The position numbers and the translations under genes were made by a program. Shown one piece after another: positions 1,171-14,404 of a DNA stretch of 14,404 bases. This stretch comes from Fibrobacterota bacterium. Its GTDB lineage: Bacteria; Fibrobacterota; Fibrobacteria; UBA11236. The notes under the pieces were generated by a model, which saw only the letters and a list, made by a program, of their open reading frames with translations, searched no databases and had not been told where the DNA came from. The DNA is taken from the NCBI GenBank assembly GCA_043753995.1, contig JAYUVP010000029.1:1-14404 (forward strand). Reading direction: 5' to 3'. How positions within the stretch are numbered: position 1 is the first letter of the stretch; each line of letters opens with the position of its first letter.

Positions 1171-2343
1171 TCAAAAGGCTTTAGCAAAGCGAACCATCGG
1201 TTTTTCAACGAAACGCCACGAAATCTCTCCTGCGCATATCGATATTCCGAGCCCACACAAAGCCACCGAAAAAAGGCTAACCTGTTCTCCAAAGCCAAAT
1301 TTTAATATGACTTTGTTTACAACGATGAGTATCGGAAAGTGCCACAAATATATTCCGAACGAGATTCGGCCAATATACCGCAAGATTCGAATATTTAGTG
1401 CTGTCCCAAAAAAATTGGACACTGGGCAAAATGCAAGGAATACTGATATGAAAAAGGGAAACCATGGAAAATAATATGGGATCGAGTTCAGGAAAAACAT
1501 TTCGGCTAGGTTTAAATCAATTCCTCCACCAAATAAAAATTTCAAAGTATTTGGAAACAGGGAAAGCAATATCCCAAAAACGGAAGCTGCACAAATAAGA
1601 TCCGCTTTTATGGATTTGGCAGTTGATGCTTCCTGTGAGCCGCGAATCCATTCTAAATAGATGCCCCGAGCAATGACTCCCATTAGAAAAATCGGAATCA
1701 TCGCCGAAGCCCCTTTTTGGAAAAACCAAAGCGAGCTATTGCGTTCAAGTTTAGTCATACCGGTATCAAAGTCATACGTGGCGCTCATTTGCAATAAGAG
1801 CGATTGCAGAAGCACGAAGAGCATGCAAATGACCAGAATGGCTGTGATTGATTTCGGTATGGAGCGAAGGCGTTTTGCTAAAACCATTACCGGTAGAAGT
1901 ATGAGATAGCATACCCATTCCATGGGAACCGACCATAGCGGTTCATTGTTTTCCCATAGCATGAAATAAGGTGGGAATATCCAATTCATAAACGTTAAGC
2001 CTAAAACTTCTCGGATCAGCCATTCCTTGTGATTGGATGCGAAGGCCGCAGTCAAGACTAAGCATATCGCGAAACCTGGCCAGATGCGTGCCCATCTTCT
2101 GATGATATAGGTTTTCCAATTCGGCAATGGACTTGCAAATTTCACCGAGTTCCAGAAGGGTCCAGCCAATAAAAAACCACTTAGAAGCAAAAAAACGGCA
2201 ACACCCGCCGAACCCTTATAGGCGAAAAACCGAATGAGGTTTGAGTCCGAACCCATGTGGCTAAGACAGACATGGTGACCGAATACCCATAGGCAAGCCA
2301 GGGCTCTGATTCCATCTAATCCCCTGATGTCGTCGGTTTTCAT
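1171..2343 (-). CDS. Acyltransferase family 3 (OafA/YrhL-like) integral-membrane O-acyltransferase, no SGNH domain
   Basis: Motifs LDGIRALACLWVFGHH, GVAVFLLLSGFLL, RRWARIWP, LWSVPMEWVCY, IGRISFGIYLWH and VEKP; polytopic hydrophobic protein of 390 aa. Confidence 0.92.
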   Translation of the reverse strand: MKTDDIRGLDGIRALACLWVFGHHVCLSHMGSDSNLIRFFAYKGSAGVAVFLLLSGFLLAGPFWNSVKFASPLPNWKTYIIRRWARIWPGFAICLVLTAAFASNHKEWLIREVLGLTFMNWIFPPYFMLWENNEPLWSVPMEWVCYLILLPVMVLAKRLRSIPKSITAILVICMLFVLLQSLLLQMSATYDFDTGMTKLERNSSLWFFQKGASAMIPIFLMGVIARGIYLEWIRGSQEASTAKSIKADLICAASVFGILLSLFPNTLKFLFGGGIDLNLAEMFFLNSIPYYFPWFPFFISVFLAFCPVSNFFGTALNIRILRYIGRISFGIYLWHFPILIVVNKVILKFGFGEQVSLFSVALCGLGISICAGEISWRFVEKPMVRFAKAF

Positions 2344-2398: not shown

Positions 2399-4333
2399 CT
2401 AGACCAAGGCCCCGATGAAATGGTGATGCAATAATTGCATCGATACCATGGACACCACGGCCATGTCGTCGCGCTCGCTCATGCGCCCTTCACCCGCAGC
2501 TACCTTGGTGGCCTTGGCTAATAGTTTTTCCGCCGTGGTTGGCTCGAAATAACCGGCCTTGCGTATGGCTTCGGGGCTGAGCACCTGGGCTGCTACATGA
2601 TTGCGGCCCGATAAGAAACATTGGCTAATGGGCGCGCGATAAGGTTGCTTGGGCCGATTCACGATTTCGGGCGGGAGCATGTCTTGGTAGGCCCGCTTCA
2701 AAATGTTTTTCTCGTCGAGAATGCGGATCTTGTGTTTGGGCGGTATGGTGGCCGCGAATTCGATGAGGCGATGATCCAAGAAGGGCACGCGCCCTTCAAC
2801 CGAATTGCCCATCATCATGCGATCGCCTTGAGACGAAAGCAAATAGCCCGACATGAAGAGGGACATTTCCAAATATTGCGCGCGGCATAGCGGATGCCAG
2901 CTTTTCATTTCGGGGTCGAGATATTTTTCCAAGTCGCCATAAAGCGATTCTTCCGAGCCCATGCTGGCGCGGAAATCGGCGGTGAATAGCGACTTCAATT
3001 GCGCGGTATTGGCCCAACGAATGGAATGCGAGTAATAAGGATTGCCGGTGTCGCTCAAATCCTTTTTGAAAAAAGCCGTCCAAAAGGCCGAGGCCATGCC
3101 GCCGCGATGGGCTTCGGGATGCAAGGAGCCGAGCAAGAGCGGACGCCATTTTGATTCGGGCTGGCGTGCCCAGAAGCGTCGCACCTTGTCTTCGCGGAAA
3201 ATGCTGTAGCCGCCAAAAATCTCGTCGGAACCTTCGCCCGTGAGCACCACCTTGATGCCCGTTTCGCGCACGAGCTTGGCGAGGCTGAGCAGAGGCGCCG
3301 GGGCGGTGCGTATCATCGGCTTTTCCGAGAGGCGAATCACATCGCTGAAGGCTGCGCCGATATCATTGTAGTCGACCTCGATGCTGCGATGATCGGTACC
3401 CAAGAAGTCGACCATTTGCTGCTGATAACCGCGCTCGTCGAAATTCGGATCTTTGAAAGCGACCGAAAAAGTGATGAGGTCGTGATTGTGGAATTTCTTC
3501 ACCAAGGCAGAAATGATGGACGAGTCGAGACCGCCGCTCAAATAAGCCGCCACCGGTACGTCAGCGCGTAATTGCAAGGTGGTGGCATCGTGCATCAAAT
3601 CACGGACGTCGGAAGCCCAGGCCTCGGCAGGACGGTCGGCATATTCTCCCGCACGGGGAAAACGGTGTTTCCAATAGGGATATTCTTTGCGACCCTCCGG
3701 ACCCAAGACGAGCATGTGTCCGGGAGGCAATTCCTTGACGCCTTGAAATACGGTGTCGGGAGGCACATTGGCCCAGAAGGTGAATACCTGGCTAATGCCA
3801 TGGGGATCGATGGCAGCCTTCATTCCCGGATAGGGGAATAAAGCCTTCATTTCCGAGGCGAAGAGCAAGGCTCCGTCCGGTGCTTGGGCATGGAAAAGCG
3901 GGCGTATGCCCACGCGATCGCGGCCTAGAATCAAGCGTTTGGTTTTGTCATCCCAAATGGCGATGGCGAATTGGCCGTTCAGGTGGGTGAATACATCCAA
4001 ACCCCAAGCCGCATAGCCATGCAATATGGTTTCGGTATCGCTATGCGATGCGAAGCGATAGCCCAACCCTTCGAGCTCTTGCCGCAATTCGATGTAATTG
4101 AAGATTTCGCCATTGAAAATCGTCACCACCGACCGATCGGCATTGAACATGGGCTGGGTGCCGCCGCTCAAATCGATAATAGATAGTCGCCTATGGCCAA
4201 AGCCCAGGCCGCTTTGATGATGATAACCTTCGCCGTCAGGCCCGCGATAAGCGAGCGCCCGAGTCATGCTTTGCAAGACTTCGAGCGGCGCTGTTTTGCC
4301 CTGGGGATGAAAAAAACCTGCGATGCCGCACAT
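2399..4333 (-). CDS. asnB: Asparagine synthase (glutamine-hydrolysing) family amidotransferase, copy 1; probably a glycan- or carrier-modifying paralogue
   Basis: N-terminal MCGIAG (Ntn catalytic Cys2), GHRRLSIIDL, FNGEIFNY, SDTE, RDRVGIRPL, PP-loop LSGGLDSS, LTGEGSDEIFGGY, GDRMMMGNSVEGRVPFLD and RPKQPY. Confidence 0.93.
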   Translation of the reverse strand: MCGIAGFFHPQGKTAPLEVLQSMTRALAYRGPDGEGYHHQSGLGFGHRRLSIIDLSGGTQPMFNADRSVVTIFNGEIFNYIELRQELEGLGYRFASHSDTETILHGYAAWGLDVFTHLNGQFAIAIWDDKTKRLILGRDRVGIRPLFHAQAPDGALLFASEMKALFPYPGMKAAIDPHGISQVFTFWANVPPDTVFQGVKELPPGHMLVLGPEGRKEYPYWKHRFPRAGEYADRPAEAWASDVRDLMHDATTLQLRADVPVAAYLSGGLDSSIISALVKKFHNHDLITFSVAFKDPNFDERGYQQQMVDFLGTDHRSIEVDYNDIGAAFSDVIRLSEKPMIRTAPAPLLSLAKLVRETGIKVVLTGEGSDEIFGGYSIFREDKVRRFWARQPESKWRPLLLGSLHPEAHRGGMASAFWTAFFKKDLSDTGNPYYSHSIRWANTAQLKSLFTADFRASMGSEESLYGDLEKYLDPEMKSWHPLCRAQYLEMSLFMSGYLLSSQGDRMMMGNSVEGRVPFLDHRLIEFAATIPPKHKIRILDEKNILKRAYQDMLPPEIVNRPKQPYRAPISQCFLSGRNHVAAQVLSPEAIRKAGYFEPTTAEKLLAKATKVAAGEGRMSERDDMAVVSMVSMQLLHHHFIGALV

Positions 4334-4355: not shown

Positions 4356-5345
4356 TTAGTGCAGGATTTCAGGTATGGCTTCGATCAACTGAGGTCCCAA
4401 GTGCAAGTAGCGTGTGGTGGCGCGCTTGGTGTCTATGTCCTTGAAGACGAGTTTAATGGGGTCTACCGGCACGCCAAGGGTTTGGGCCACGACTTCTGGC
4501 GCTATGCCATGATTCTTGGCATAAAGGCACAAATCCATTTTGTCATAAGGCAACGAGAAATAAAACTCGTCTTGGCCTTGAGGAAGGGAATAGGTGTCCG
4601 TAGTCGGAGGGCGGCGGCGAATTTTTTCAGGCACGCCGAGGAATTCGGCTAGTTGATAAACCTGGGTCTTGTACAAATGGGCAATGGGTTTCAAATCAGC
4701 CGCGCCATCGCCGAGCTTGACGAAAAAACCTTGATCGTATTCGAGGCGATTGGGCGTTCCCGTCACGGCAAAATTCAAGCGATCCGCGTGATAGTATTCC
4801 ATCATTTTGCGAATGCGCTGTTTGAAATTGGTGGCGGCCACAATGCCGAGATAAGCATCTAGAGGCAAGCGCTTTTTAATGGTTTCGCCGCTCGGGGTCT
4901 GCGCGATTATGGAATAAAAATTGATGCCCTTGGTTTCCAAGAAATTGGGGAGCACGATCTTCATTTTCCAGCCCGCGCCGTATTCAGGAATGGCCTTTCG
5001 CACGGAATCATCCAGGCGGCTATAGCAGCCGACGGCGTCAAGCATGGGTGTAAGGATTTCCGCCTTGGAATCGATGCCGAAGTGATTGGAAATGCTCTGG
5101 CTTAGCGAGAGGGTTTCCGACCCGGAATCTCGTTCGGGCATATGCAGGCCAAAGACTCGATCTTTACCGACGGCATGAACGGCCAGAGCGCAGGTCACGG
5201 AGCTATCAATACCGCCGGAAAGGGCGACGATATAGCCGCGACGCTTGAAGCGGATCAAATTTTCTTGCATGACAGCCGCGATTTTCGCGACTTCTTTAGC
5301 GCAATCGATATCAAGAACTTTGGCGGAGAAGGCATTGGTTGACAT
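4356..5345 (-). CDS. nadE: NH3-dependent NAD+ synthetase (NadE)-like ATP pyrophosphatase/amide synthetase; atypical paralogue with an internal insertion
   Basis: PP-loop LSGGIDSS, GLHMPE, NFKQRIRK, GTPNRLE..GFFVKLGDG, PIAHLYKTQVYQLA and PPTTD; no glutaminase (nitrilase) domain. RBS-like AGGA overlaps the ACP stop codon. The family is clear, but the NAD synthetase function is not. Confidence 0.85.
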   Translation of the reverse strand: MSTNAFSAKVLDIDCAKEVAKIAAVMQENLIRFKRRGYIVALSGGIDSSVTCALAVHAVGKDRVFGLHMPERDSGSETLSLSQSISNHFGIDSKAEILTPMLDAVGCYSRLDDSVRKAIPEYGAGWKMKIVLPNFLETKGINFYSIIAQTPSGETIKKRLPLDAYLGIVAATNFKQRIRKMMEYYHADRLNFAVTGTPNRLEYDQGFFVKLGDGAADLKPIAHLYKTQVYQLAEFLGVPEKIRRRPPTTDTYSLPQGQDEFYFSLPYDKMDLCLYAKNHGIAPEVVAQTLGVPVDPIKLVFKDIDTKRATTRYLHLGPQLIEAIPEILH

Positions 5346-5743: not shown

Positions 5744-6973
5744 TCAAAGGGAAGGCGAACTGGGCGTCCCTCTTTGCGCCAAGATTTCACGAAAGTGTCC
5801 TTCCAGACCTTCGGCGACCGCATCCCAGGTATGCTTGGCGGCATAGGCCACCAGGTCTTGGGCGACCCAAGGCGTGGCGAAAGCCTGCTGCATCCATCGG
5901 GAAAAGGTCGCTGCATTCCGCTCGTCAGCCATGAGGCCTAAGTCGGGTCGGCAAAGGATTTCAGGTACGCCCCAAGTGCGGGTGGCCAAGACGGGCGTGC
6001 CGCAGGCGAGGGCTTCAAGGACGACATTGGGCCAGCCTTCCTTTTCGCTGGCCAGGCAGAAGAGGTCGGCTGCAGAATAATATCGGTAGAGTTCCTGGTT
6101 GAGTACGGCCCCCACAAAGCGCACGGAATCGGTGATACCCAAGGAGGCCGCTTGGGCGCGCAATTGCGGCTCGACATTGCCTTCCTCGCCGCCTTTGCCG
6201 ACAATAACCAAGGTCGTGTCGCGATAGCCCTTTTGATGCAATTCGGCCAAGGCTTGGATGAGGATGTCCACCCCTTTGCGGGCCACTAAGTGGCTGACGG
6301 AAAGCAAAATCTTGCCGGTGGCAGGTAGCCCCAAGGCTTGCCGGGCTTCGGGTTTGGGCAGAGGGAAAAACCGGCTGGCGTCGACGCCATTGGCCGAACG
6401 AAAGCCGGTAGACGCGGGAGCCCCCAGTTTGACAGCGCCATCTACCAAGGCTTGAGCCACGCCGAAATAGCGGTCGGCGTTTTGCAGGGCATAAACGATT
6501 TGCCGCCTTCGGACAGGATACTGTGGCAAGTCATTGATGTCATGGCCTCGCAAAGTGACGCATAGCGGCAATCCCAGCCACCGCTTCAAGAGGGCACCGG
6601 AAAACCCTTCGGGAAAGGCGAGATGACAGTCGATCAAGTCGAAGGACTTCATTTTGTTTACGGCGCGTAGCCAGCGATAGACTCGGAATGCCAAGGTCCA
6701 TCCTTCCAACGGTTTGGCGACGAAGGGCATCGAAAAGAATTTTGGGAAGAAGGTGGGATAGGCATTGCTTTCCGTTGTGAGCGGAATCGCATGTCGATTG
6801 CGATATCGGCCAATGAAATTTTCGCCAGGAAACCAGGGCACGGGCGAGACCACGGTCAAGTCCACTCGCTTTGCAAGTGCGTCCAGCCTTTGCTTGACGA
6901 ATTGTGCATGCACCGGCATGCGAGGATTGGGGAACATGGTGGAGATGGAAAGAACGCGCAGCCGTGAGGTCAT
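5744..6973 (-). CDS. GT4 family (GT-B fold) glycosyltransferase, TuaC-like
   Basis: LRVLSISTMFPNP N-terminus, VSPVPWFP, TLRGHDIN, NGVD, RKGVDILI and the EX7E motif EGWPNVVLEALACGTPV. Start moved to ATG at 6973 (MTSRLRVL) because the longer ORF to 7111 overlaps the divergent gene. Confidence 0.9.
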   Translation of the reverse strand: MTSRLRVLSISTMFPNPRMPVHAQFVKQRLDALAKRVDLTVVSPVPWFPGENFIGRYRNRHAIPLTTESNAYPTFFPKFFSMPFVAKPLEGWTLAFRVYRWLRAVNKMKSFDLIDCHLAFPEGFSGALLKRWLGLPLCVTLRGHDINDLPQYPVRRRQIVYALQNADRYFGVAQALVDGAVKLGAPASTGFRSANGVDASRFFPLPKPEARQALGLPATGKILLSVSHLVARKGVDILIQALAELHQKGYRDTTLVIVGKGGEEGNVEPQLRAQAASLGITDSVRFVGAVLNQELYRYYSAADLFCLASEKEGWPNVVLEALACGTPVLATRTWGVPEILCRPDLGLMADERNAATFSRWMQQAFATPWVAQDLVAYAAKHTWDAVAEGLEGHFREILAQRGTPSSPSL

Positions 6974-7009
6974 GTTTAGGTCGGTCGCCGATGGGGATAA
7001 GGGTTCGGC

Positions 7010-7022
7010 GCTATATTTTAGC
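7010..7022. promoter_or_regulatory. Putative bidirectional promoter core with overlapping -10-like elements (TATATT on +, TAAAAT on -)
   Basis: GCTATATTTTAGC is the most AT-rich patch in the 51-bp gap between two divergent starts (6973 and 7025) and is an imperfect palindrome. Confidence 0.45.
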
Positions 7023-7024
7023 TT

Positions 7025-8254
7025 ATGCCTTCCCCTCATGCCGGGCTTGGTCAATGCCTGTTCATTGTTTTCTCGGATGATTGGGGCCGGCATCCATCTA
7101 GCTGTCAACATCTTTTCCGTCGTATTTGCCCCTATTCCGAAGTGGTTTGGGTGAATACCGTCGGTTTGAGAACGCCGAAGTTAAGCCTTTACGACATCAA
7201 GCGCGCTTGGGAAATCCTGGGCGGTTGGCTCGGTCTCGGCAAAAGAAAACCCGCAGCCGTGAAGGATGAGCCCGAAAAGACCAAGGCCGATCCCGAAGTA
7301 TTGCGGCCCTTCATGTTACCCTGGTATCAATTTTCCTGGGTGGAAAACCTCAATCATGCCCTCATCGCGCGCGCTGTGCGCCGACGTGTGATTCAATCAC
7401 CAGGGAAAAAGCCACTCCTGGTCAGTACCCTGCCCATTATCCCCGAACTTTTCCGCCAAGATTACTGGTATAAGCGAGTGTATTACTGCGTCGATGATTT
7501 CACCACTTGGCCCGGCGTCTCGGGGGAGGTCATGAAAAGGCTTGAGGCCCGGACCTTGGCGCATTGCGATGTTTTAATCGCCACGTCTTCGGCTCTGCAA
7601 GAAAGCCGCGGCAAGGCCGTGACTACGTCCAACCTTTTGACCCATGGTGTTGACATCAACCATTTCGCTAAAGCCCGGGAAGCCGTCCCCGCGCCTGAAA
7701 TCAAAGCCTTACCCAGTCCCGTGGTTGGGCTTTTCGGATCCTTTGATCCGCGAATCGACGGCGACTTACTCAAACGCGTGGCCCTGGCCGTGGCGCCTGG
7801 CAGTGTTGTTGTGCTCGGCCCGGTGGATCGCAGCCTGAACGAGTTTCAAGGCGTCGCCAACCTGCATTTCCTCGGCGCAAAGCCTTATGCCGATTTGCCG
7901 GCTTTCGTCGCTGGCATGGCGGCTTTGATTCTGCCTTATCGCATCGATGCCTCGACCCACAATATCAATCCGCTCAAACTCAAGGAATATCTCGCCACGG
8001 GTTTGCCGGTCATCGCGACTCCCCTGCCGGAAATTCTTCGCTTGGGAGGAGATACCGTGGTGGCCCAAAGCGAGGATTTCGTGAGCGCGGTATTGAAGGC
8101 CCTGGCGTCCCCGCGTCCCGATTGGGCGAAACGTCAGGCTTTCTTATCCCGTGAAACTTGGGACGCGAAGGCTGAAACTTTTTGCCATTTCCTGCTCGAC
8201 CACGCGGATAATACCGTGGTGCCGGCATCGCATCCCTTGCGCGGAGGAGTTTGA
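7025..8254 (+). CDS. GT-B fold glycosyltransferase, TuaH-like / GT4-related
   Basis: FSDDWGRHPSSCQHL, VVWVNTVGLR, YYCVDDF..WPG, HGVDINHF and PLKLKEYLATGLPVIAT are typical of TuaH-like polysaccharide glycosyltransferases. Confidence 0.85.
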   Translation: MPSPHAGLGQCLFIVFSDDWGRHPSSCQHLFRRICPYSEVVWVNTVGLRTPKLSLYDIKRAWEILGGWLGLGKRKPAAVKDEPEKTKADPEVLRPFMLPWYQFSWVENLNHALIARAVRRRVIQSPGKKPLLVSTLPIIPELFRQDYWYKRVYYCVDDFTTWPGVSGEVMKRLEARTLAHCDVLIATSSALQESRGKAVTTSNLLTHGVDINHFAKAREAVPAPEIKALPSPVVGLFGSFDPRIDGDLLKRVALAVAPGSVVVLGPVDRSLNEFQGVANLHFLGAKPYADLPAFVAGMAALILPYRIDASTHNINPLKLKEYLATGLPVIATPLPEILRLGGDTVVAQSEDFVSAVLKALASPRPDWAKRQAFLSRETWDAKAETFCHFLLDHADNTVVPASHPLRGGV

Positions 8255-8255
8255 A

Positions 8256-10175
8256 ATGTGCGGTTTAGCAGGCATTATCGCCGCGGGCGGTGGAATTTCC
8301 GAAAGCGATCGCAAGCTTTGCCGCGCCATGACGCGCGCCATTGCCCATCGCGGCCCGGACGCAGAAGGCTTTTTCGATGCGCCGGGCTTGGCTTTCGGGC
8401 ATAGGCGCCTCAGTATTATCGACTTGGCTTCGGGGCAACAACCCATGATCAGCGCGGACGGTCGCTATGCCGTGGTATTCAATGGCGAGATTTACAACTA
8501 CTTGGATTTACGGCGCGAGCTAGAATCCCGTGGCGCGCAATTCCGGACCAAAAGCGATACTGAAGTTTTGCTGCACGGCTATGCCGCCTGGGGCGAAGCC
8601 TTGCCTAATAAGCTGCGCGGCATGTTCGCTTTCGTCGTGCAAGACCTACAAACCCGACATTCCTTGTCGGCGCGGGATCCCATCGGCAAAAAGCCCTTTT
8701 ATTTTCGCCGAGTAGGCGATCGGTTGATTTTCGCCAGTGAATTCCAGGCCTTGCTCTGTGATGAAACTTTGGCCCGCGATATCGATGACGAGGCCTTGAA
8801 TCTTTATTTGGCCCTCGGCTATGTGCCAGCGCCTTTGACCTTATATCGCGGCATCTCCAAGCTGGAAGCCGGCGAAGCCCTGTCGCTCACGCCCGAAGGT
8901 TTTCGCCGCTGGAAATATTGGCAGCCTTTGGCGAATCGCAAGTCGGCGCCCCGCCCCGAAGCCTGGGTGGACACCTTGGAGCAGCACTTGCTCGGCGCGG
9001 TGTCGCGGCGCCTCATGAGCGAGGTTCCTCTCGGGGCCATGCTCTCCGGCGGCATAGACAGCAATTTGGTGGTGGCCGAAATGGCGCGCACTTCGAGCAG
9101 CCAGGTGCGAACCTTTACCGCCGGTTTTGATTCTCGTAGCGCCTTGCCTGGCATACAAGACGAGCGCGCCATCGCCGCTTCGGCTGCGGCGCATTATGGC
9201 ACCGATCACCGTGCCATCGATTTGCCCTCCACGGCCTTTGACGAGCTCAAGCAACTCGCCGGGAATCTCGGCGAGCCGCTGGCCGATCCCTCCATATTGC
9301 CGACCTATCTCATTTGCCGCGAGGCCAAGCGTCATGTCACCGTGGCCTTGACCGGCGACGGCGGAGACGAGCCCTTCGGCGGATATTCTTTCCGTTATTT
9401 ACCGCATCTGCGCGAGCAGAGCTTGCGCGGAAAAGCTCCCGAAAGTCTTTTGCGGGCTGTCGCCAGGCCCTTGTCCCACCTTTGGCCCACGGGGGAAGGC
9501 GTTCCGCGCTCGCTGCGCTTGCAAACCGTTTGGCGTAACCTGGCGGTTTCCCCGCTGCAAGCTTTTTTGCTTGATCAAATGCCGCGCTGGCCCGAAAATC
9601 AGTCCAATCCCCGCTTGCAAAGCGGCATGTTGGCGGCCCTTTCCCGCATGGAAATTCTCGCCGCCGAGGCCGCCGCCGGCGGCTTGGACGAAATGAATCA
9701 GAAGCTGTGGATAGACACTCGCCTCTACATGTGCGAAAACGTCCTGGTCAAGGCGGACCGCATGAGCATGGCCGCGGGCTTGGAATTGCGCGCCCCTTTG
9801 CTCGACCAAGACTTGGTGGAATTCGCTTTTTCCCTGCCCCTGGAAGCCAAAATCCGTGCAGGGGAATGCAAATGGCTGCTGCGCAAATTAGCGGCGAACC
9901 GGGTTTGGCCGGAATTATTCAAGCAGCCGAAAACCGGCTTTTCCATACCCATAGACACTTATTTGCGAGGCGCATGGCGCCAGGGGGCTGAAGCGGTTTT
10001 GCTGAAGCCTGAGCCCTTGGAGGCTTTAGGGTTCACCCTTTCGGCGGTACAAAAGCTTTGGAATGAATTTCAATCTGGAGTCACCCGCCATACCATGCCG
10101 CTTTGGACGCTTTTGCAATTCTCTTTATGGTGGCATGGCGTGCATTGCCGACCCTCCAAGGACTTTTCGGTTTGA
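8256..10175 (+). CDS. asnB: Asparagine synthase (glutamine-hydrolysing) family amidotransferase, copy 2; EPS-associated type
   Basis: True start is ATG at 8256 (MCGLAG, catalytic Cys2) with strong RBS GGAGGAG at 8243-8249. Motifs HRGPD, GHRRLSIIDL, FNGEIYNY, SDTEV, LSGGIDSN, LTGDGGDE and KADRMSMAAGLELRAPLLD. Confidence 0.93.
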   Translation: MCGLAGIIAAGGGISESDRKLCRAMTRAIAHRGPDAEGFFDAPGLAFGHRRLSIIDLASGQQPMISADGRYAVVFNGEIYNYLDLRRELESRGAQFRTKSDTEVLLHGYAAWGEALPNKLRGMFAFVVQDLQTRHSLSARDPIGKKPFYFRRVGDRLIFASEFQALLCDETLARDIDDEALNLYLALGYVPAPLTLYRGISKLEAGEALSLTPEGFRRWKYWQPLANRKSAPRPEAWVDTLEQHLLGAVSRRLMSEVPLGAMLSGGIDSNLVVAEMARTSSSQVRTFTAGFDSRSALPGIQDERAIAASAAAHYGTDHRAIDLPSTAFDELKQLAGNLGEPLADPSILPTYLICREAKRHVTVALTGDGGDEPFGGYSFRYLPHLREQSLRGKAPESLLRAVARPLSHLWPTGEGVPRSLRLQTVWRNLAVSPLQAFLLDQMPRWPENQSNPRLQSGMLAALSRMEILAAEAAAGGLDEMNQKLWIDTRLYMCENVLVKADRMSMAAGLELRAPLLDQDLVEFAFSLPLEAKIRAGECKWLLRKLAANRVWPELFKQPKTGFSIPIDTYLRGAWRQGAEAVLLKPEPLEALGFTLSAVQKLWNEFQSGVTRHTMPLWTLLQFSLWWHGVHCRPSKDFSV

Positions 10176-11380
10176 ACATTCTTTATTTGTCCCAACGGTT
10201 GCCCTATCCTCCCGATCGCGGCGACCGGATTCCAGTTTATCATCATATTCGACAGCTCGGTTTGCGGCATCGCGTGCATGTGGCCTCCCTGATTTCTGGC
10301 CCGGACGAAGCGGATTCGGTCAAGGCCCTGCAAGCCATGACGGCCTCAGTAACCGTGGCTACCCAAAGCCGCTTGTCCTCCCTCTTGGGCATGGTGGGCG
10401 CCTTGCTTCGCGGCCTTTCCCTGAGCATCGGATATTTTCGCAATGGCCGACTGGGAGGCGAAATCCATCGCATGATGCGATCGGGTGAAATCGATGCCGT
10501 GGTGATTTTCTCTTCGTCCATGGCGCCCTATGTCGATGGCTTTTCCGACCGCATTCGCATCATGAATTTTTGCGATGTCGATTCGCGTAAGTGGGCTGAT
10601 TTGGCGGCCACGGTTCCCTTTCCCCGCTCCTGGATTTATCGCCGCGAGGCCAAAACCTTAGCCCGCTATGAGCGATCGGTGGCCAAGCGCTTTTCGGCTT
10701 GCTGCTTTGTCACCGAAGGGGAAGCCGCCCTTTTTCGCACGGTCATGCCCGAGGCTCGCCCTGAAGTGGTTCCCAATGGCGTCGACCATGAGAAATTCGG
10801 GACCGTGAAGCGGGCGCCGGAAGGCCTTAAATTCGCGCTCGTGGGCGTCATGGACTATGAGCCCAATGTCGAGGCCGCGATTTTTTTCGCTCGCGAGGTT
10901 TTCCCTCGATTGCGCCAGCGATGGCCTGAAGCTGAATTCCAAGTGGTGGGTGCTCGTCCTTCGCCCGAAGTGAAAGCCCTGGCGGCCTTGCCCGGCGTGA
11001 CGGTGACTGGCTATGTGGACGATGTGCGTGATTATTTGGCCACGGCGACTCTGGTTGTCATTCCACTGGCCGTGGCGCGTGGCATACAGAATAAGGTGCT
11101 TGAAGCGCTGGCTGCCGCGGTGCCGGTCATCGTCTCCAAGCCCGTGGCGGAGAGCCTGGGCAGCCATTTGCGCGAATGCCTTTATGTTGCGGATCGCACG
11201 GCCCAGGGCTTTTATGCTGGCGTGGAAACCGCCCTCGCCGAGGCCGCCGAAACACGCCAGGCCAAGGCCGAAAAGGCCCAGGCCATTTTGCGCCAGGAAG
11301 CCACCTGGGAAGCCAGCGCCGCGAAGCTTGAAGCCATGATTTTAGGCGCGAAGCGTCGCGCTACACAAAAACAGGATTAA
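10172..11380 (+). CDS. TIGR03087-like sugar transferase (PEP-CTERM/exosortase A-associated GT4-type glycosyltransferase)
   Basis: NILYLSQRLPYPPDRGDRI, FCDVDSRKW, VPNGVD, GVMDYEPNVEAA and PLAVARGIQNKVLEALA. The TTG start at 10172 overlaps the asnB stop (TTGA), suggesting translational coupling, with AAGGA upstream. Confidence 0.85.
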   Translation: MNILYLSQRLPYPPDRGDRIPVYHHIRQLGLRHRVHVASLISGPDEADSVKALQAMTASVTVATQSRLSSLLGMVGALLRGLSLSIGYFRNGRLGGEIHRMMRSGEIDAVVIFSSSMAPYVDGFSDRIRIMNFCDVDSRKWADLAATVPFPRSWIYRREAKTLARYERSVAKRFSACCFVTEGEAALFRTVMPEARPEVVPNGVDHEKFGTVKRAPEGLKFALVGVMDYEPNVEAAIFFAREVFPRLRQRWPEAEFQVVGARPSPEVKALAALPGVTVTGYVDDVRDYLATATLVVIPLAVARGIQNKVLEALAAAVPVIVSKPVAESLGSHLRECLYVADRTAQGFYAGVETALAEAAETRQAKAEKAQAILRQEATWEASAAKLEAMILGAKRRATQKQD

Positions 11381-11393
11381 AGACCCCTGAGGC

Positions 11394-14009
11394 CTAAGCC
11401 CAAGGGTCGCGGCGTTCACGCCACGCCTGCCAGAGATAAAGCGGCAGCTTCAGTCCCGCACTCCGAATCGTCCCCTTGATGCGTGCCAGAACCACGGTTT
11501 TCTGCGGAGTCACGACAAGACGTGGGCGGTAGGGCCCTTGCGGCTCGCTGAGGCCGAGATTCCATTTGGGACCTTCGCCGGTCCAGGCTTGCAGCACGGC
11601 AAAGCAATGCAAGGTAATCGCCAGGTTACGGGTGCAAAAGCGATCTTTCGCCTTCAGCAAGTCTTGGCTGGCGGCGTCCAGGAAGCGCTTGGCGGCCTGG
11701 GAAAAGCCCGCCGCCTCGTCAGCTGGGGCAAAGCGCGCGGCGAGGGCGAAAACGGCGGCCTTGCGTAAATCCTGGGCGGCCCAGGTTGAGGTGGGAAATT
11801 CCAATTCTTCGGGCTTACTCAGGTAGGGATATTCGTTTTTCGCCATCCAGCGGGCATAGCGCAATAGCACGGCCCTGGCGCGCTCCCAAGCCGGGGTGAT
11901 GCGGCCACCTTGGTGCAGGACTTCGAGATAGCGACCCACCATTTGCAAATACACCACATAGGACCAGCGATTTTCCCGGTGAAGCAAGCCCATGTTTTCG
12001 ACATCGTCCTCGGGAGATGAAACGACTTCTTGCACGCGTTCGGCCTTGGCCAGCCAGGTCTCGTCGCCATCGGCCAAATAGGCATCGAGCAAGGTATTGA
12101 GGCTATAGCCGGAACCGCGTCCGGGGCCTTGCCAATCGAGATCGCGCGTGCCCGTGGCGAGGCCCGTGGGACCTCCTGCTAGCCATTTCAAAGGCGTGCG
12201 GCGCCCGTCTTGCATGGCCGTCACCCAGCGCGCCAATTGCAAAACGGCATCGCGAGAGGCCGTGTCGCCGGTCAGCCAATAATGCAGCAAAAGCCCCGAA
12301 GAATAATTGTGCTCATTCGCGGGACCGCCACCGAAGCCGGCCGGCAGGGGTTTGCCTTCGAAAGCCAGGCGCGAATAAGTGCGATGCGTCGCTAGGCCAG
12401 CATGGGCATAATGCGCGGTATGCCAGAAATAGCCGCCATTGTAGGCCGCTTTGTCTTGCTGAGTGTGATAAAGGTCATGATGACGCACATGTTCGGCCAA
12501 CCGCAGGCCCAATTCGTCGAGTCCGGCGTCTCCCCTGGACAAACCCCCAGCGAGCAGCCCATACATCATGTCGTATTGATTATTGTAATGGGAAACCATG
12601 GGCCATTGGCCCTGATAATGCTCGGCTTCGTGATCGGCGGCCACCTCGCCGAAATTGCGCCAACCGTATTCATCCCAGCTTTCGCGCCGCGCTTGCAAAG
12701 CGCTTTTGCCCTCCAGCACCGCTCCGCCCAAGGCGGGAGGCAAGGTTTCGGCAGCTTGCAAAGAGAAAAAAGGCAAGGCTCGGCTAGCGGCGACCGTGGG
12801 GCCATCGGGCAGGGCATAAACTCCCGCTCGCGCGCCGGAAAGCAATTCCGGCATTTTATCCCACTCCGCAACGGAGTCCTGGGCCGCTATCCAAAACACG
12901 GCGCGGGTGCGCTCACCGCCTTGCAATTCATAGCGTTGGGCATCTTGCAAAGGCCAGGGCTCATAACGGATTTCATTTTGCTGCACTTCGAGGGACGAAG
13001 GAAAACGCTCCCAAAAATCTTCCGGCTGTATTTCCCATTTCCCGCCGTCTTCCCAGCGCATCACGGGATTGGCCCTGCGACCATCCAGGGTGTTTTGCTT
13101 CATGCCTTTTTCCAGCTTATAACCCTCGAAACGCACCGTGCTGTTTGAGTCGGCCCCGCGATGGGCTAAAGCCGACAAGGGGAGCACGGATTCCAGCCCG
13201 GAGGAGCCCTGCAGCAAGGAGGCTTGCTCTCCCAATTTGTGCCAGTCATGGCCGGGTTCGGCTTGTAACCAAGCTTGTCCGTTGCGTGGCCAGCGAAAGC
13301 CCAGGGCATGAAGATGCAGGGATCCTGCATCGCCCAAATCCCAGAGGCCGCCAGGGTGTTTGGCCGCCGAGGGATTCCACAAATTCACTTCGATGCGTAG
13401 CAGCGGCGTTTCGGGAAAGGAGGTAGCCTGCACGGTACCCCGTAAGCGGGAATGGCCGCCTTGGGCATCGGCGGCGAAGCAACCTTCCCAAATCAAGTCG
13501 GCGCGCTGTGCATTCGCCTCTAAGCGCACGGCATGGGGAAGAAAGGCGCTTTCGACGCCTAGGTTGAAGCGAATGAAAAGCCAGGGTTGATTTTGCGCCT
13601 CGCCTTCCTTTTGCAGGCATAGGCCTCGACGCCAATCCCATGCGATTTTTTGCTGGCCAAAGGTTACGCCGCCTTTTTTTTCGGCTTGATTCAACCAAGC
13701 CGTAGCGGGCCTAGCTGTGACGCTTGGCTCCGCCGGATGCATTTGCACGGCGACTAGGGCTCGCCCCCATTCTGCTGCGGCGATGCCATCGATTTGCGCC
13801 CATTGCCAACTTTGATCGGGCCAAAGGCGCAAGGGCTTGGCCGCCACGACGCTTTCACTGCCGTCGGCAGCGCGGATTTTCCAAAGCGGCGATCCGAAAA
13901 CCTGGCCGCGCGGCAAGGGTAGGCCACAGCGAAAGGGATGCATGCCGCTCCAGGGCAAGGCACGCAGGGTTTGCAAGGAGAGGTGACCAACGGTTTGCCA
14001 AGGACTCAT
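11394..14009 (-). CDS. Uncharacterised 871-aa protein, probable carbohydrate-active enzyme resembling the PcRGLX/YetA-like (exo-rhamnogalacturonan lyase-like) architecture
   Basis: Long ORF, co-directional with and 21 bp downstream of the hexapeptide acyltransferase. N-terminal GLPLPRG and motif-like blocks HPGGLWDLGD, EYGWRNFGE, SHYNNQYD, FWHTAHY, EHNYSSGLLLHYWLTGD and TWAAQDLRK. The CDS is confident; the fold assignment is from recall and tentative. Confidence 0.8.
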   Translation of the reverse strand: MSPWQTVGHLSLQTLRALPWSGMHPFRCGLPLPRGQVFGSPLWKIRAADGSESVVAAKPLRLWPDQSWQWAQIDGIAAAEWGRALVAVQMHPAEPSVTARPATAWLNQAEKKGGVTFGQQKIAWDWRRGLCLQKEGEAQNQPWLFIRFNLGVESAFLPHAVRLEANAQRADLIWEGCFAADAQGGHSRLRGTVQATSFPETPLLRIEVNLWNPSAAKHPGGLWDLGDAGSLHLHALGFRWPRNGQAWLQAEPGHDWHKLGEQASLLQGSSGLESVLPLSALAHRGADSNSTVRFEGYKLEKGMKQNTLDGRRANPVMRWEDGGKWEIQPEDFWERFPSSLEVQQNEIRYEPWPLQDAQRYELQGGERTRAVFWIAAQDSVAEWDKMPELLSGARAGVYALPDGPTVAASRALPFFSLQAAETLPPALGGAVLEGKSALQARRESWDEYGWRNFGEVAADHEAEHYQGQWPMVSHYNNQYDMMYGLLAGGLSRGDAGLDELGLRLAEHVRHHDLYHTQQDKAAYNGGYFWHTAHYAHAGLATHRTYSRLAFEGKPLPAGFGGGPANEHNYSSGLLLHYWLTGDTASRDAVLQLARWVTAMQDGRRTPLKWLAGGPTGLATGTRDLDWQGPGRGSGYSLNTLLDAYLADGDETWLAKAERVQEVVSSPEDDVENMGLLHRENRWSYVVYLQMVGRYLEVLHQGGRITPAWERARAVLLRYARWMAKNEYPYLSKPEELEFPTSTWAAQDLRKAAVFALAARFAPADEAAGFSQAAKRFLDAASQDLLKAKDRFCTRNLAITLHCFAVLQAWTGEGPKWNLGLSEPQGPYRPRLVVTPQKTVVLARIKGTIRSAGLKLPLYLWQAWRERRDPWA

Positions 14010-14030: not shown

Positions 14031-14404
14031 TTAGGCGGAAGGATGACGGCGATCACGTAAGACGCGCGCAGGCTGTCCCACGGCGATGGCATAAGCGGGG
14101 ATTTCCTGCACGACGGTAGAGGCGGCGCCAATCACGCCATGATCGCCAATGTGGTTCCCGACAACGGCTTGATTGCCTATCCAGCAGTCGTCGCCGATGC
14201 GCACTTCGAGGTATTCTCCGCCCTGGTCGCGAATGGGAATGTCGAGGGAATCGAATCGATGTTGGTTGAAGCCCGAGAGGATATGCACCCCCGTACCGAT
14301 GAGGCAGTCTTTGCCGATAGAGCAAAGGCCGAGATTGACGAAAGGCCCGATATAGCTGCCTGCGCCGATCGAAATGCCGGGATTGGACAAGGTGACCATG
14401 AAAC
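14031..14404 (-). CDS. Hexapeptide-repeat (left-handed beta-helix) O-acetyl/acyltransferase, 5'-truncated by the window edge
   Basis: Repeats ISIGAGSYIG, CSIGKDCLIG, VRIGDDCWIG and HIGDHGVIGAASTV, ending in IPAYAIAVGQPARVLR. The frame stays open to the window edge, so ATG at 14399 is probably internal. Confidence 0.88.
   Translation of the reverse strand, partial: FMVTLSNPGISIGAGSYIGPFVNLGLCSIGKDCLIGTGVHILSGFNQHRFDSLDIPIRDQGGEYLEVRIGDDCWIGNQAVVGNHIGDHGVIGAASTVVQEIPAYAIAVGQPARVLRDRRHPSA

Follow-up and report, generated by a model that had tools for sequence, protein, structure and literature searches.

What is a large protein with no assigned function doing among genes for glycan biosynthesis? 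The question is raised by a contig of 14,404 bases (JAYUVP010000029.1, assembly GCA_043753995.1) from the 5.2-Mb draft genome of a Fibrobacterota bacterium, which was analysed whole and is referred to here as the window. Its minus strand encodes an 871-aa protein, P0001, whose predicted structure has the fold of PcRGLX, the exo-rhamnogalacturonan lyase of Penicillium chrysogenum and representative of polysaccharide lyase family 26 (PL26). The answer favoured here, with a rough probability of 0.45, is that P0001 would be an enzyme of PL26 architecture, working at the cytoplasmic face of the membrane and cleaving a glycosidic bond, with lyase-type chemistry preferred over hydrolysis. The gene and its predicted parts are as follows.

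11394..14009 (stop codon included), minus strand: gene for the 871-aa PcRGLX-fold protein P0001, an intact open reading frame (ORF) with an ATG start
13725..14009, minus strand: N-terminal RIFT-barrel-like beta domain, residues ~1-95, from the PF19501 match, the profile alignment and model strands 10-78
12810..13724, minus strand: central beta-sandwich domain, residues ~96-400, from the model and from PF21345 (PcRGLX_2nd) matches on homologues
11562..12809, minus strand: (alpha/alpha)6 toroid, the presumed catalytic domain, residues ~401-816, from the model and the His/Tyr/Asp/Asn/Arg/Trp motifs
11397..11561, minus strand: conserved C-terminal tail, residues 817-871, 'PQK' followed by a basic stretch and a short hydrophobic patch, net charge +8
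11372..11389, minus strand: weak terminator-like hairpin (5-pair stem) directly past the P0001 stop codon, between convergent genes

The fold was approached through an AlphaFold model built with 69 sequences, which has a mean predicted local distance difference test score (pLDDT) of 88.6 and a predicted template-modelling score (pTM) of 0.94; its strands end at residue 377 and its helices begin at 380. When this model was searched with Foldseek, the top 10 matches were all PcRGLX chains (best E 2.6e-17, template-modelling score 0.62), and its VIA-align superposition on PcRGLX gave a Z of 23.7 and a root-mean-square deviation (rmsd) of 3.8 A over 671 aligned residues (model 2-816 against chain 23-923). 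PcRGLX was the sole full-length match among 977 re-aligned Foldseek candidates, and again in a Foldseek-independent comparison with 48,161 representative chains. The identity between both proteins is 11-14%, and phmmer with the single P0001 sequence gave no PcRGLX match in the PDB at E<=10. When 69 family sequences were aligned (A1, with columns on average 37% identical) and the resulting profile was run against the PDB sequences, it matched PcRGLX chains only (E 1.1e-12; 5xq3, 5xqg, 5xqj, 5xqo). Three collinear stretches make up this match: the N-terminal domain (positions 21-155 to PcRGLX 19-160, i-E 3.3e-8, with the common motif GxPxPxG...WxDGSxKW), the sandwich with its FWxxFP (positions 310-351 to PcRGLX 352-394) and the toroid with its RHxxxxDxYH; the full-length E value is owed mainly to the first of them. 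On this evidence, P0001 and PcRGLX (PDB 5XQ3, 5XQG, 5XQJ, 5XQO) are genuinely, if distantly, homologous, sharing the three-domain architecture and a similar size, about 880-900 aa. Nevertheless, the PcRGLX toroid is undetectable from the sequences of the P0001 family and P0001 stays below the Pfam PcRGLX thresholds; since its toroid has no sequence match to solved structures, it is to be taken as a PL26-fold relative and not as a PL26 member.

The motifs of the protein are concentrated in the toroid: EYGWRNFGEVAADHE (residues 447-461), SHYNNQYD (473-480), HVRHHDLYHT (507-516), YNGGYFWHTAHY (523-534), THRTYS (541-546), GGGPANEHNY (560-569) and RWSY (681-684). They fall on invariant or near-invariant columns of alignment A1, which holds 45 invariant columns (the toroid-only alignment A2, of 56 sequences, holds 43). 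Residues identical in 69/69 are E447, W450, R451, G454, H460, H474, N476, N477, Q478, D480, H507, D512, Y514, G526, W529, H533, H542, R543, G561, G562, W682 and Y684, the invariant columns also including D519 and E726; five histidines (H460, H474, H507, H533, H542) are thus invariant. In the sandwich domain N212, H218, W223, G226, Q267, G271, E361, Q363, G365 and E366 are invariant, together with the FWxxFP motif at 332-337. The conservation of the motifs is far above chance, and, placed on the predicted domains, these residues delineate a dense conserved polar and aromatic site that would span both sandwich and toroid. This pattern also bears on the idea that P0001 is a non-catalytic scaffold or a glycan-binding module which organises a complex of glycosyltransferases (GTs) and tailoring enzymes at the membrane. 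Although its membrane tail and its place among GTs would suit such a role, 45 invariant residues, mostly His, Asp, Glu, Tyr, Arg, Asn and Trp, maintained over at least nine phyla at 30-45% identity, are the pattern of an active site, and a mere scaffold is hardly to be expected. Cysteine, by contrast with these residues, is not conserved in A1, each of the five Cys of P0001 being common to at most 7/69 sequences. The GH127/GH146 beta-L-arabinofuranosidases (HypBA1 type) have the (alpha/alpha)6 toroid in common with P0001, but catalysis in GH127 uses a Cys/Zn site; GH127-type Cys/Zn and LanC-type Zn-Cys chemistry were both ruled out, as the P0001 family has no conserved Cys. The GH127 model PF07944 is not matched by P0001, and the weak matches of its homologues, which cover helices of the toroid, reach 24.6 bits at best, below the cut-off of 24.9.

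An earlier note, drawn up from the letters of this DNA, had described an ORF of 871 aa with no obvious signal peptide or transmembrane segment, a beta-rich N-terminal half, a helical C-terminal half and the seven motifs given above. All of this is borne out: the ORF is intact, the halves part between residues 377 and 380 of the model, and all seven motifs are present and conserved in the 69-sequence alignment. The carbohydrate-active fold that it proposed, naming PcRGLX, agrees with the sole full-length relative of the predicted structure. As for the PL26/PcRGLX relation itself, it holds for the architecture over the whole length, but not for PL26 membership by sequence in the catalytic domain.

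How far does this protein extend beyond its host? Neither in Pfam-A nor in NCBIfam did any model match P0001 at E<=0.01 or above threshold; at E<=10 in Pfam the only match was PF19501 (PcRGLX_1st; residues 27-71, 15.9 bits, E 0.012, cut-off 22.1), whose threshold is passed by the homologues P0002, P0004, P0009, P0026, P0075 and P0104 (26.7-53 bits). PF21345 and PF21346 (thresholds 23.5 and 23.8 bits) gave no match to P0001 at E<=10; the former is above threshold solely in the more distant homologues P0026, P0075 and P0104, the latter in no homologue (best 17.9 bits). PF19501 and PF21345 are carried by many relatives, a weak PF07944 or PF21346 by few, and some sources label relatives 'YetA-like' or 'exo-rhamnogalacturonan lyase-like'. 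A word-indexed search gave 2687 proteins at E<=1e-3 to P0001 among 8000 candidates scored, while an exhaustive search with one representative per 50% cluster gave 1211 at E<=1e-3, 923 at E<=1e-10 and 590 at E<=1e-30, the closest relative having 43-45% identity. In species-representative genomes at least 512 stretches were confirmed as relatives, out of 600 pattern matches listed. The best 80 of these relatives, counted by hand from their record titles, comprise 29 Acidobacteriota, 24 Planctomycetota, 9 'delta-proteobacterial'/Desulfobacterota-type, 5 Gamma- or Betaproteobacteria, 3 Nitrospirota, 3 Moduliflexus/UASB bacteria, 2 Fibrobacteria, 1 Omnitrophota, 1 Bradymonadia and 3 unassigned, that is, at least 9 phyla. 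The P0001 family is large, unnamed and uncovered by any curated Pfam or NCBIfam model above threshold.

Within the host phylum, P0001 orthologues match the whole family profile at >900 bits, whereas other PcRGLX-like paralogues match its first ~220 positions only, at <=103 bits; in genome G004 paralogues match partial profile lengths at 257-470 bits. To judge from these profile matches, the family is sharply set apart from the other PcRGLX-like paralogues of the phylum. The window genome itself contains a second, shorter PcRGLX_1st protein (L094:5970-8105, contig C245; 711 aa, 23.5 bits) in a different context, adjoined by a beta-helix protein and a Kelch-repeat protein. Elsewhere, the homologue at L052:9881-10597 is seemingly split, a separate 238-aa ORF with PcRGLX_1st (47.9 bits) lying just upstream, which would be either a frameshift or an assembly error.

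The next question is on which side of the membrane such a protein would work. No stretch at the N-terminus of P0001 resembles a signal peptide, and its body has no transmembrane-like segment (highest Kyte-Doolittle mean in a 19-residue window, 1.04). Upstream of the ATG the frame remains open for only 7 extra codons (878 aa maximum), so a missed signal peptide has no room. The same holds for the family: a hydrophobic stretch like that of a signal peptide is present within residues 1 to 40-45 in 0/69 aligned members and in 0/203 family proteins, the latter being the stored proteins of 780-1000 aa with the tail motif (42 without it were left out). The tail extends at least 25 residues past the toroid and opens with the conserved 'PQK' in 69/69; of the 203 proteins, 195 have a tail with a net charge of +4 or more (median of all +8), and in 48 a transmembrane-like helix stands at the extreme C-terminus. 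In tails of this last type the basic stretch comes directly before the helix, on the side of the globular domain. According to the positive-inside rule, the basic flank of a transmembrane helix stays cytoplasmic, and therefore the globular part would do so as well. These features of the family's sequences argue firmly for a cytoplasmic and membrane-proximal location. A test for amphipathic helices was uninformative (the median maximum hydrophobic moment was 0.49 in the tails and 0.48 in control pieces taken from the toroid). A PEP-CTERM sorting signal on P0001 was also considered and rejected, since there is no NCBIfam match and the C-terminus is without the motif.

This location has to be set against what is known of exopolysaccharide (EPS) operons, which commonly encode an enzyme that clears the polymer outside the cytoplasm. 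AlgL, PslG, BcsZ and PelA are exported periplasmic glycanases or lyases of this kind, and in P0001, as in them, the fold of a polysaccharide-cleaving enzyme is encoded in an EPS locus. P0001 could thus be a further classical periplasmic or extracellular clearing enzyme, exported by an unrecognised route. However, the absence of a signal-peptide-like N-terminus in all 203 proteins, and a C-terminal transmembrane helix whose basic stretch on the globular side keeps the domain cytoplasmic, speak against it; moreover, there is no sequence relation with the four enzymes, and several loci of the family hold a separate beta-helix protein able to fill the clearing role. Export is for these reasons very improbable. 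The beta-helix proteins deserve a remark of their own: in two genomes of the host's taxonomic family the gene just downstream of the orthologue encodes a right-handed beta-helix protein of 465-484 aa (L089:12161-13558 and L090:11846-13300), and others are found in L022 and L034; they could be candidate periplasmic polymer-modifying enzymes of these loci.

Which pathway, then, would P0001 serve? The other genes of the window are listed below.

14031..14404, minus strand: hexapeptide-repeat acetyltransferase, upstream of the P0001 gene and co-oriented with it, 21 nt away, cut by the contig end
10103..11380, plus strand: convergent neighbour, glycosyltransferase of the PEP-CTERM/XrtA system, TIGR03087 (stp1), 383.9 bits, cut-off 316.65
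8256..10175, plus strand: AsnB-type amidotransferase, best model TIGR03108 (XrtA/PEP-CTERM amidotransferase), 535.6 bits, below the cut-off of 816.9
7025..8254, plus strand: GT4-type glycosyltransferase, weakly TuaH-like, divergent from the TuaC-like one
5744..7111, minus strand: GT4-type glycosyltransferase, weakly TuaC-like, divergent from the TuaH-like one
4356..5345, minus strand: NadE-like amidating enzyme, PRK00876 subfamily, 501 bits, cut-off 313
2399..4333, minus strand: other AsnB-type amidotransferase, family-model match
1171..2343, minus strand: Acyl_transf_3 acyltransferase, in a low-GC segment
115..1158, plus strand: Acyl_transf_3 acyltransferase, in the same low-GC segment

The P0001 gene closes a minus-strand unit which starts past the contig end with the hexapeptide acetyltransferase, its start codon following the stop codon of that gene after 21 nt. 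This unit converges on a plus-strand one composed of the TuaH-like GT, the AsnB-type amidotransferase and stp1. The hairpin between them has to be considered weak, since the region shows 3 terminator-like sites against 4.6 expected, and a promoter scan gave 0 sites.

Whether this company is fortuitous was assessed in 78 related loci in which the ORF of the homologue could be identified (2 of 80 were dropped, having no called ORF). Relatives of the window genes (E<=1e-10, within three genes of the homologue) were compared with a chance expectation from the 3872 ORFs of the window genome, a single-genome baseline: GT4 relatives were observed in 31/78 loci (2.0 expected), those of AsnB in 22-23/78 (0.6), those of stp1 in 21/78 (0.1) and those of the hexapeptide acetyltransferase in 15/78 (0.1), while both Acyl_transf_3 genes and the NadE-like gene had no relatives in the 78 loci. 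Pfam annotation of the neighbours covered 49 of 51 loci with at least 3 called ORFs on each side (L081 and L082 were left out). With 3 neighbours per side in 20 loci, GTs made up 31/120 ORFs and at least one polysaccharide gene was present in 19/20 (the exception being L008); with 2 neighbours per side in 29 loci, the figures were 21/116 and 22/29, the seven loci without an adjoining polysaccharide gene being L052, L055, L057, L059, L060, L070 and L071. Pooling both sets, GTs account for 52/236 neighbours and a polysaccharide gene adjoins the homologue in 41/49 loci, Wzy_C, flippase and Bac_transf genes being seen among them. In the 38 loci with at least 8 kb per side, 34 had one or more of seven EPS marker families and 22 had three or more, and an exosortase lay within ~20 kb in 5.

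The arrangement of these genes is also recurrent: DUF3473 deacetylase, FemAB-like, stp1, homologue, stp2-like GT4, optional hexapeptide acetyltransferase and AsnB, with the stp2-like GT4 directly downstream on the same strand in 17/76 loci and stp1 directly upstream in 8/70. In the flanks of L065, L028 and L018 the models TIGR03006, TIGR03019 and TIGR03087 score above cut-off, the stp2 and amidotransferase models being the best matches, although below their cut-offs; L026 contains XrtA itself (245.3 bits, cut-off 208). Four genomes of the host's taxonomic family are syntenic with the window, the orthologue having 39-42% identity and the neighbours being kept (AsnB 49-53%, stp1 45-51%, hexapeptide acetyltransferase 53-55% identity, plus GT4). 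The relatives of P0001 are thus embedded in the XrtA/PEP-CTERM EPS gene set (TIGR03006, TIGR03019, TIGR03087, TIGR03088, TIGR03108, TIGR03109), and no curated model of this set or of NCBIfam covers P0001. The association of the family with EPS biosynthesis loci of XrtA/PEP-CTERM type is far above chance.

Some loci depart from this picture. In the Planctomycetota loci L044, L045 and L063 a UbiA prenyltransferase flanks the homologue, accompanied in L044 and L063 by PMT_2 (GT-C), and L046 has a PMT_2 gene and no UbiA; such flanks hint at a polyprenyl-phosphate-sugar route unlike the XrtA core. Around the homologue in L008, from a Nitrospirae metagenome-assembled genome, none of six ORFs has a Pfam match at E<=1e-5, which may reflect mis-called ORFs in high-GC DNA or a truly different context.

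The genomic neighbourhood is also what weighs on the possibility that the enzyme serves catabolism or recycling, degrading in the cytoplasm oligosaccharides which the cell has taken up, whether derived from its own EPS or from pectin of plants. This is the role proposed for the YetA-like proteins, such as YetA from the rhamnogalacturonan cluster of Bacillus subtilis. The bacterial YetA-like/PcRGLX-like proteins (PF19501 + PF21345 + PF21346 or PF07944) have the N-terminal RIFT barrel and the sandwich in common with P0001, and the ESM-Atlas clusters nearest to it carry domains of this kind, among them YetA/GH127-like proteins of Bacillota. Homology to an exo-acting pectin lyase, the cytoplasmic location of the family and the fact that the closest named records among the matches listed are Fibrobacteria, which are degraders of plant polysaccharides, would also fit. 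Nevertheless, YetA-like proteins have a catabolic context as opposed to the biosynthetic one of the P0001 family: catalogued transport or catabolic genes are rare among the 236 neighbours (one SBP_bac_5, one ABC_tran and one EamA, against 52 GTs), in several phyla the gene has a GT gene on either side within the core of the biosynthetic locus, and a membrane tail is unexpected on a soluble catabolic enzyme. Recycling is therefore regarded as improbable.

The distribution of the gene was compared with that of exosortases in the host's taxonomic family, 31 related genomes of which 15 are exosortase-positive, a count that takes in the unpublished genome G160. The window genome has one exosortase, on another contig (C224), with 185 bits to PF09721, above cut-off, and 148.9 bits to the XrtA-specific TIGR03109, whose cut-off is 208. 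The full-length gene is present in five genomes of the family, four of them exosortase-positive (the window genome G000, G044, G112 and G142) and the fifth, G166 (82% complete), without exosortase, that is, in 4/15 exosortase-positive against 1/16 exosortase-negative genomes; as the genomes are kin, these counts describe the association and do not test it. Another exosortase-negative genome, G152 (100% complete), has a broken copy (L093:8448-10649, contig C3), where the profile matches in separate pieces with an internal TAG and a 733-aa ORF aligns over 313 residues only.

Fold, location and context together lead to the following proposal. The combination of RIFT barrel, beta sandwich and (alpha/alpha)6 toroid would make P0001 a carbohydrate-active enzyme, which would remain in the cytoplasm, held at the inner membrane by its basic C-terminal tail (which some members of the family have as a genuine tail anchor). 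It would find its substrate at the cytoplasmic face, either a repeat unit linked to lipid or a growing glycan, and would act there alongside other cytoplasmic tailoring enzymes; the XrtA-type EPS biosynthesis genes with which the family is associated nearly all encode cytoplasmic tailoring enzymes or GTs. There a glycosidic bond would be cut by lyase-type chemistry, a His/Tyr pair abstracting the proton next to the sugar carboxylate, with beta-elimination following. PL26 enzymes cut Rha-(1,4)-GalA by beta-elimination, at the reducing end. Lyase chemistry is favoured because the sole full-length homologue is a lyase, because the invariant His/Tyr/Arg/Asn set fits the residues that metal-independent toroid lyases use, and because carboxylated sugars are indicated by the AsnB-type enzymes which recur beside the gene and by the three amidating enzymes of the window.

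The fold of the toroid, however, would equally accommodate a tailoring enzyme which leaves the chain unbroken, by C5-epimerisation of a uronate or by 2-epimerisation or isomerisation of the type of the N-acylglucosamine 2-epimerase (AGE) family, and so changes the stereochemistry of a sugar, be it in a precursor or in the lipid-linked repeat unit. C5-epimerisation is mechanistically akin to lyase action, the proton being abstracted and then returned. The toroid matches AGE-family structures as well as any: cellobiose 2-epimerase 9l8i_A gives Z 19.9 (rmsd 3.7 A, 326 residues aligned) and N-acylglucosamine 2-epimerases Z 16-18. Furthermore, AGE enzymes use His acid/base pairs, which the five invariant histidines could provide, and a cytoplasmic biosynthetic setting with deacetylase, FemAB-like protein, acetyltransferase and amidotransferase suits a modifier better than a degrader. 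Against this stand the lyase nature of the only full-length relative, the lack of any match of P0001 to AGE-type models in Pfam, even at E<=10, or to AGE-superfamily models in NCBIfam, and the architecture, since AGE enzymes are single-domain, while an additional RIFT barrel and sandwich with invariant polar residues are typical of oligo- or polysaccharide clefts. Such an epimerase is considered unlikely.

Returning to the cleaving enzyme of PL26 architecture, several observations count against it. No member of the family has an established activity or substrate. The toroid-only profile A2 gave nothing significant in the PDB sequences, where its best matches were Cas1 and a nanobody at E 1.1, and the toroid alone (~416-816) matches GH105/YteR, GH88, the PL lyase 5no8, AGE-type epimerases, GH76 and GH8 at Z 17-20, with terpene cyclases and other non-glycan toroids matching about equally (Z 17-20); the fold therefore leaves the chemistry unfixed. 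A polymer of Wzx/Wzy type is made in the periplasm, so that a cytoplasmic cleaving enzyme would be left without an obvious polymer. UDP-sugar dehydrogenase genes are rare, in 2/78 related loci and none in the window, which leaves a uronate substrate hypothetical. Moreover, 4 of the 38 full-flank loci have none of the seven EPS markers; the gene is accessory, not core, in the host's family; and the tail of P0001, with its +8 charge and short hydrophobic patch, has no transmembrane helix, so that a peripheral membrane association is what we infer for P0001 itself.

With regard to the remaining claims of the earlier note, the expected enrichment of homologues in polysaccharide loci was indeed observed, the homologues lying near TuaH-like or stp-type GTs, hexapeptide acetyltransferase and asnB, and the cytoplasmic step that it suggested from the lack of an export signal is sharpened by the basic or transmembrane C-terminal tail. 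The uronic-acid-containing polymer on which the protein was supposed to act has fared worse: apart from the scarcity of UDP-sugar dehydrogenases, the TuaC and TuaH models score 133 and 59 bits in the window, against cut-offs of 550.

Other features of the window concern its remaining genes. Positions 1-2400, which hold both Acyl_transf_3 genes, have a GC content of 0.41, compared with 0.55-0.60 elsewhere in the window, and may be a separately acquired O-acylation cassette. The three ATP-dependent carboxylate-amidating enzymes, two AsnB-type and one NadE-like, lie within 14 kb. The ORF of the AsnB-type enzyme next to stp1 was called from GTG 8151, whereas the alignment to the family models begins at residue 36, reading MCG... 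with the N-terminal nucleophile Cys, and the true start is therefore probably ATG 8256. The called 5' ends of the divergent GT genes, 5744-7111 on the minus and 7025-8254 on the plus strand, overlap by 87 nt (positions 7025-7111); as the GT4 model aligns from residue 52, at least one of both start codons is probably over-called.

What would such an enzyme mean? XrtA/PEP-CTERM loci drive the formation of floc and biofilm matrix in Acidobacteriota, Planctomycetota, sulfate reducers and activated-sludge Proteobacteria, although, as far as we are aware, little has been learnt about the chemistry of the polysaccharides which they produce. The textbook glycanases of EPS operons are periplasmic, and PcRGLX is a secreted fungal pectin degrader, whereas the P0001 family is bacterial, predicted to be cytoplasmic and membrane-tailed, and placed in biosynthetic loci; a glycan-cleaving fold on the cytoplasmic side of a biosynthetic pathway would be unusual. 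No link between the P0001 family and exosortase loci was found in a literature search that covered main texts, for the most part from outside the subscription journals, and passages of Haft 2006 and of the epsSMASH preprint make no mention of a lyase, hydrolase or amidotransferase in this sense. The evidence points to a family of PL26-fold enzymes which would have been relocated to a biosynthetic pathway, on its cytoplasmic side. A more specific version, doubtful but conceivable, is that XrtA-linked assembly of Wzx/Wzy type includes an unrecognised step at the cytoplasmic face, in which a tethered PL26-fold enzyme would cleave or C5-epimerise a carboxylated sugar in the undecaprenyl-diphosphate-linked repeat unit before it is flipped. 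The question is testable, since a cultured carrier of the family, Desulfogranum marinum DSM 2058 (locus L065), exists. If lipid-linked intermediates are indeed edited, the Wzx/Wzy scheme would gain a step in which the building block is edited, instead of the finished polymer being cleared, and a lyase or hydrolase family distant from PL26, new at the CAZy level and spread over at least 9 phyla, would have been recognised, offering a handle on matrix structure. Should P0001 turn out to be an ordinary tailoring epimerase or recycling enzyme, thousands of 'hypothetical' genes would still receive a functional annotation.

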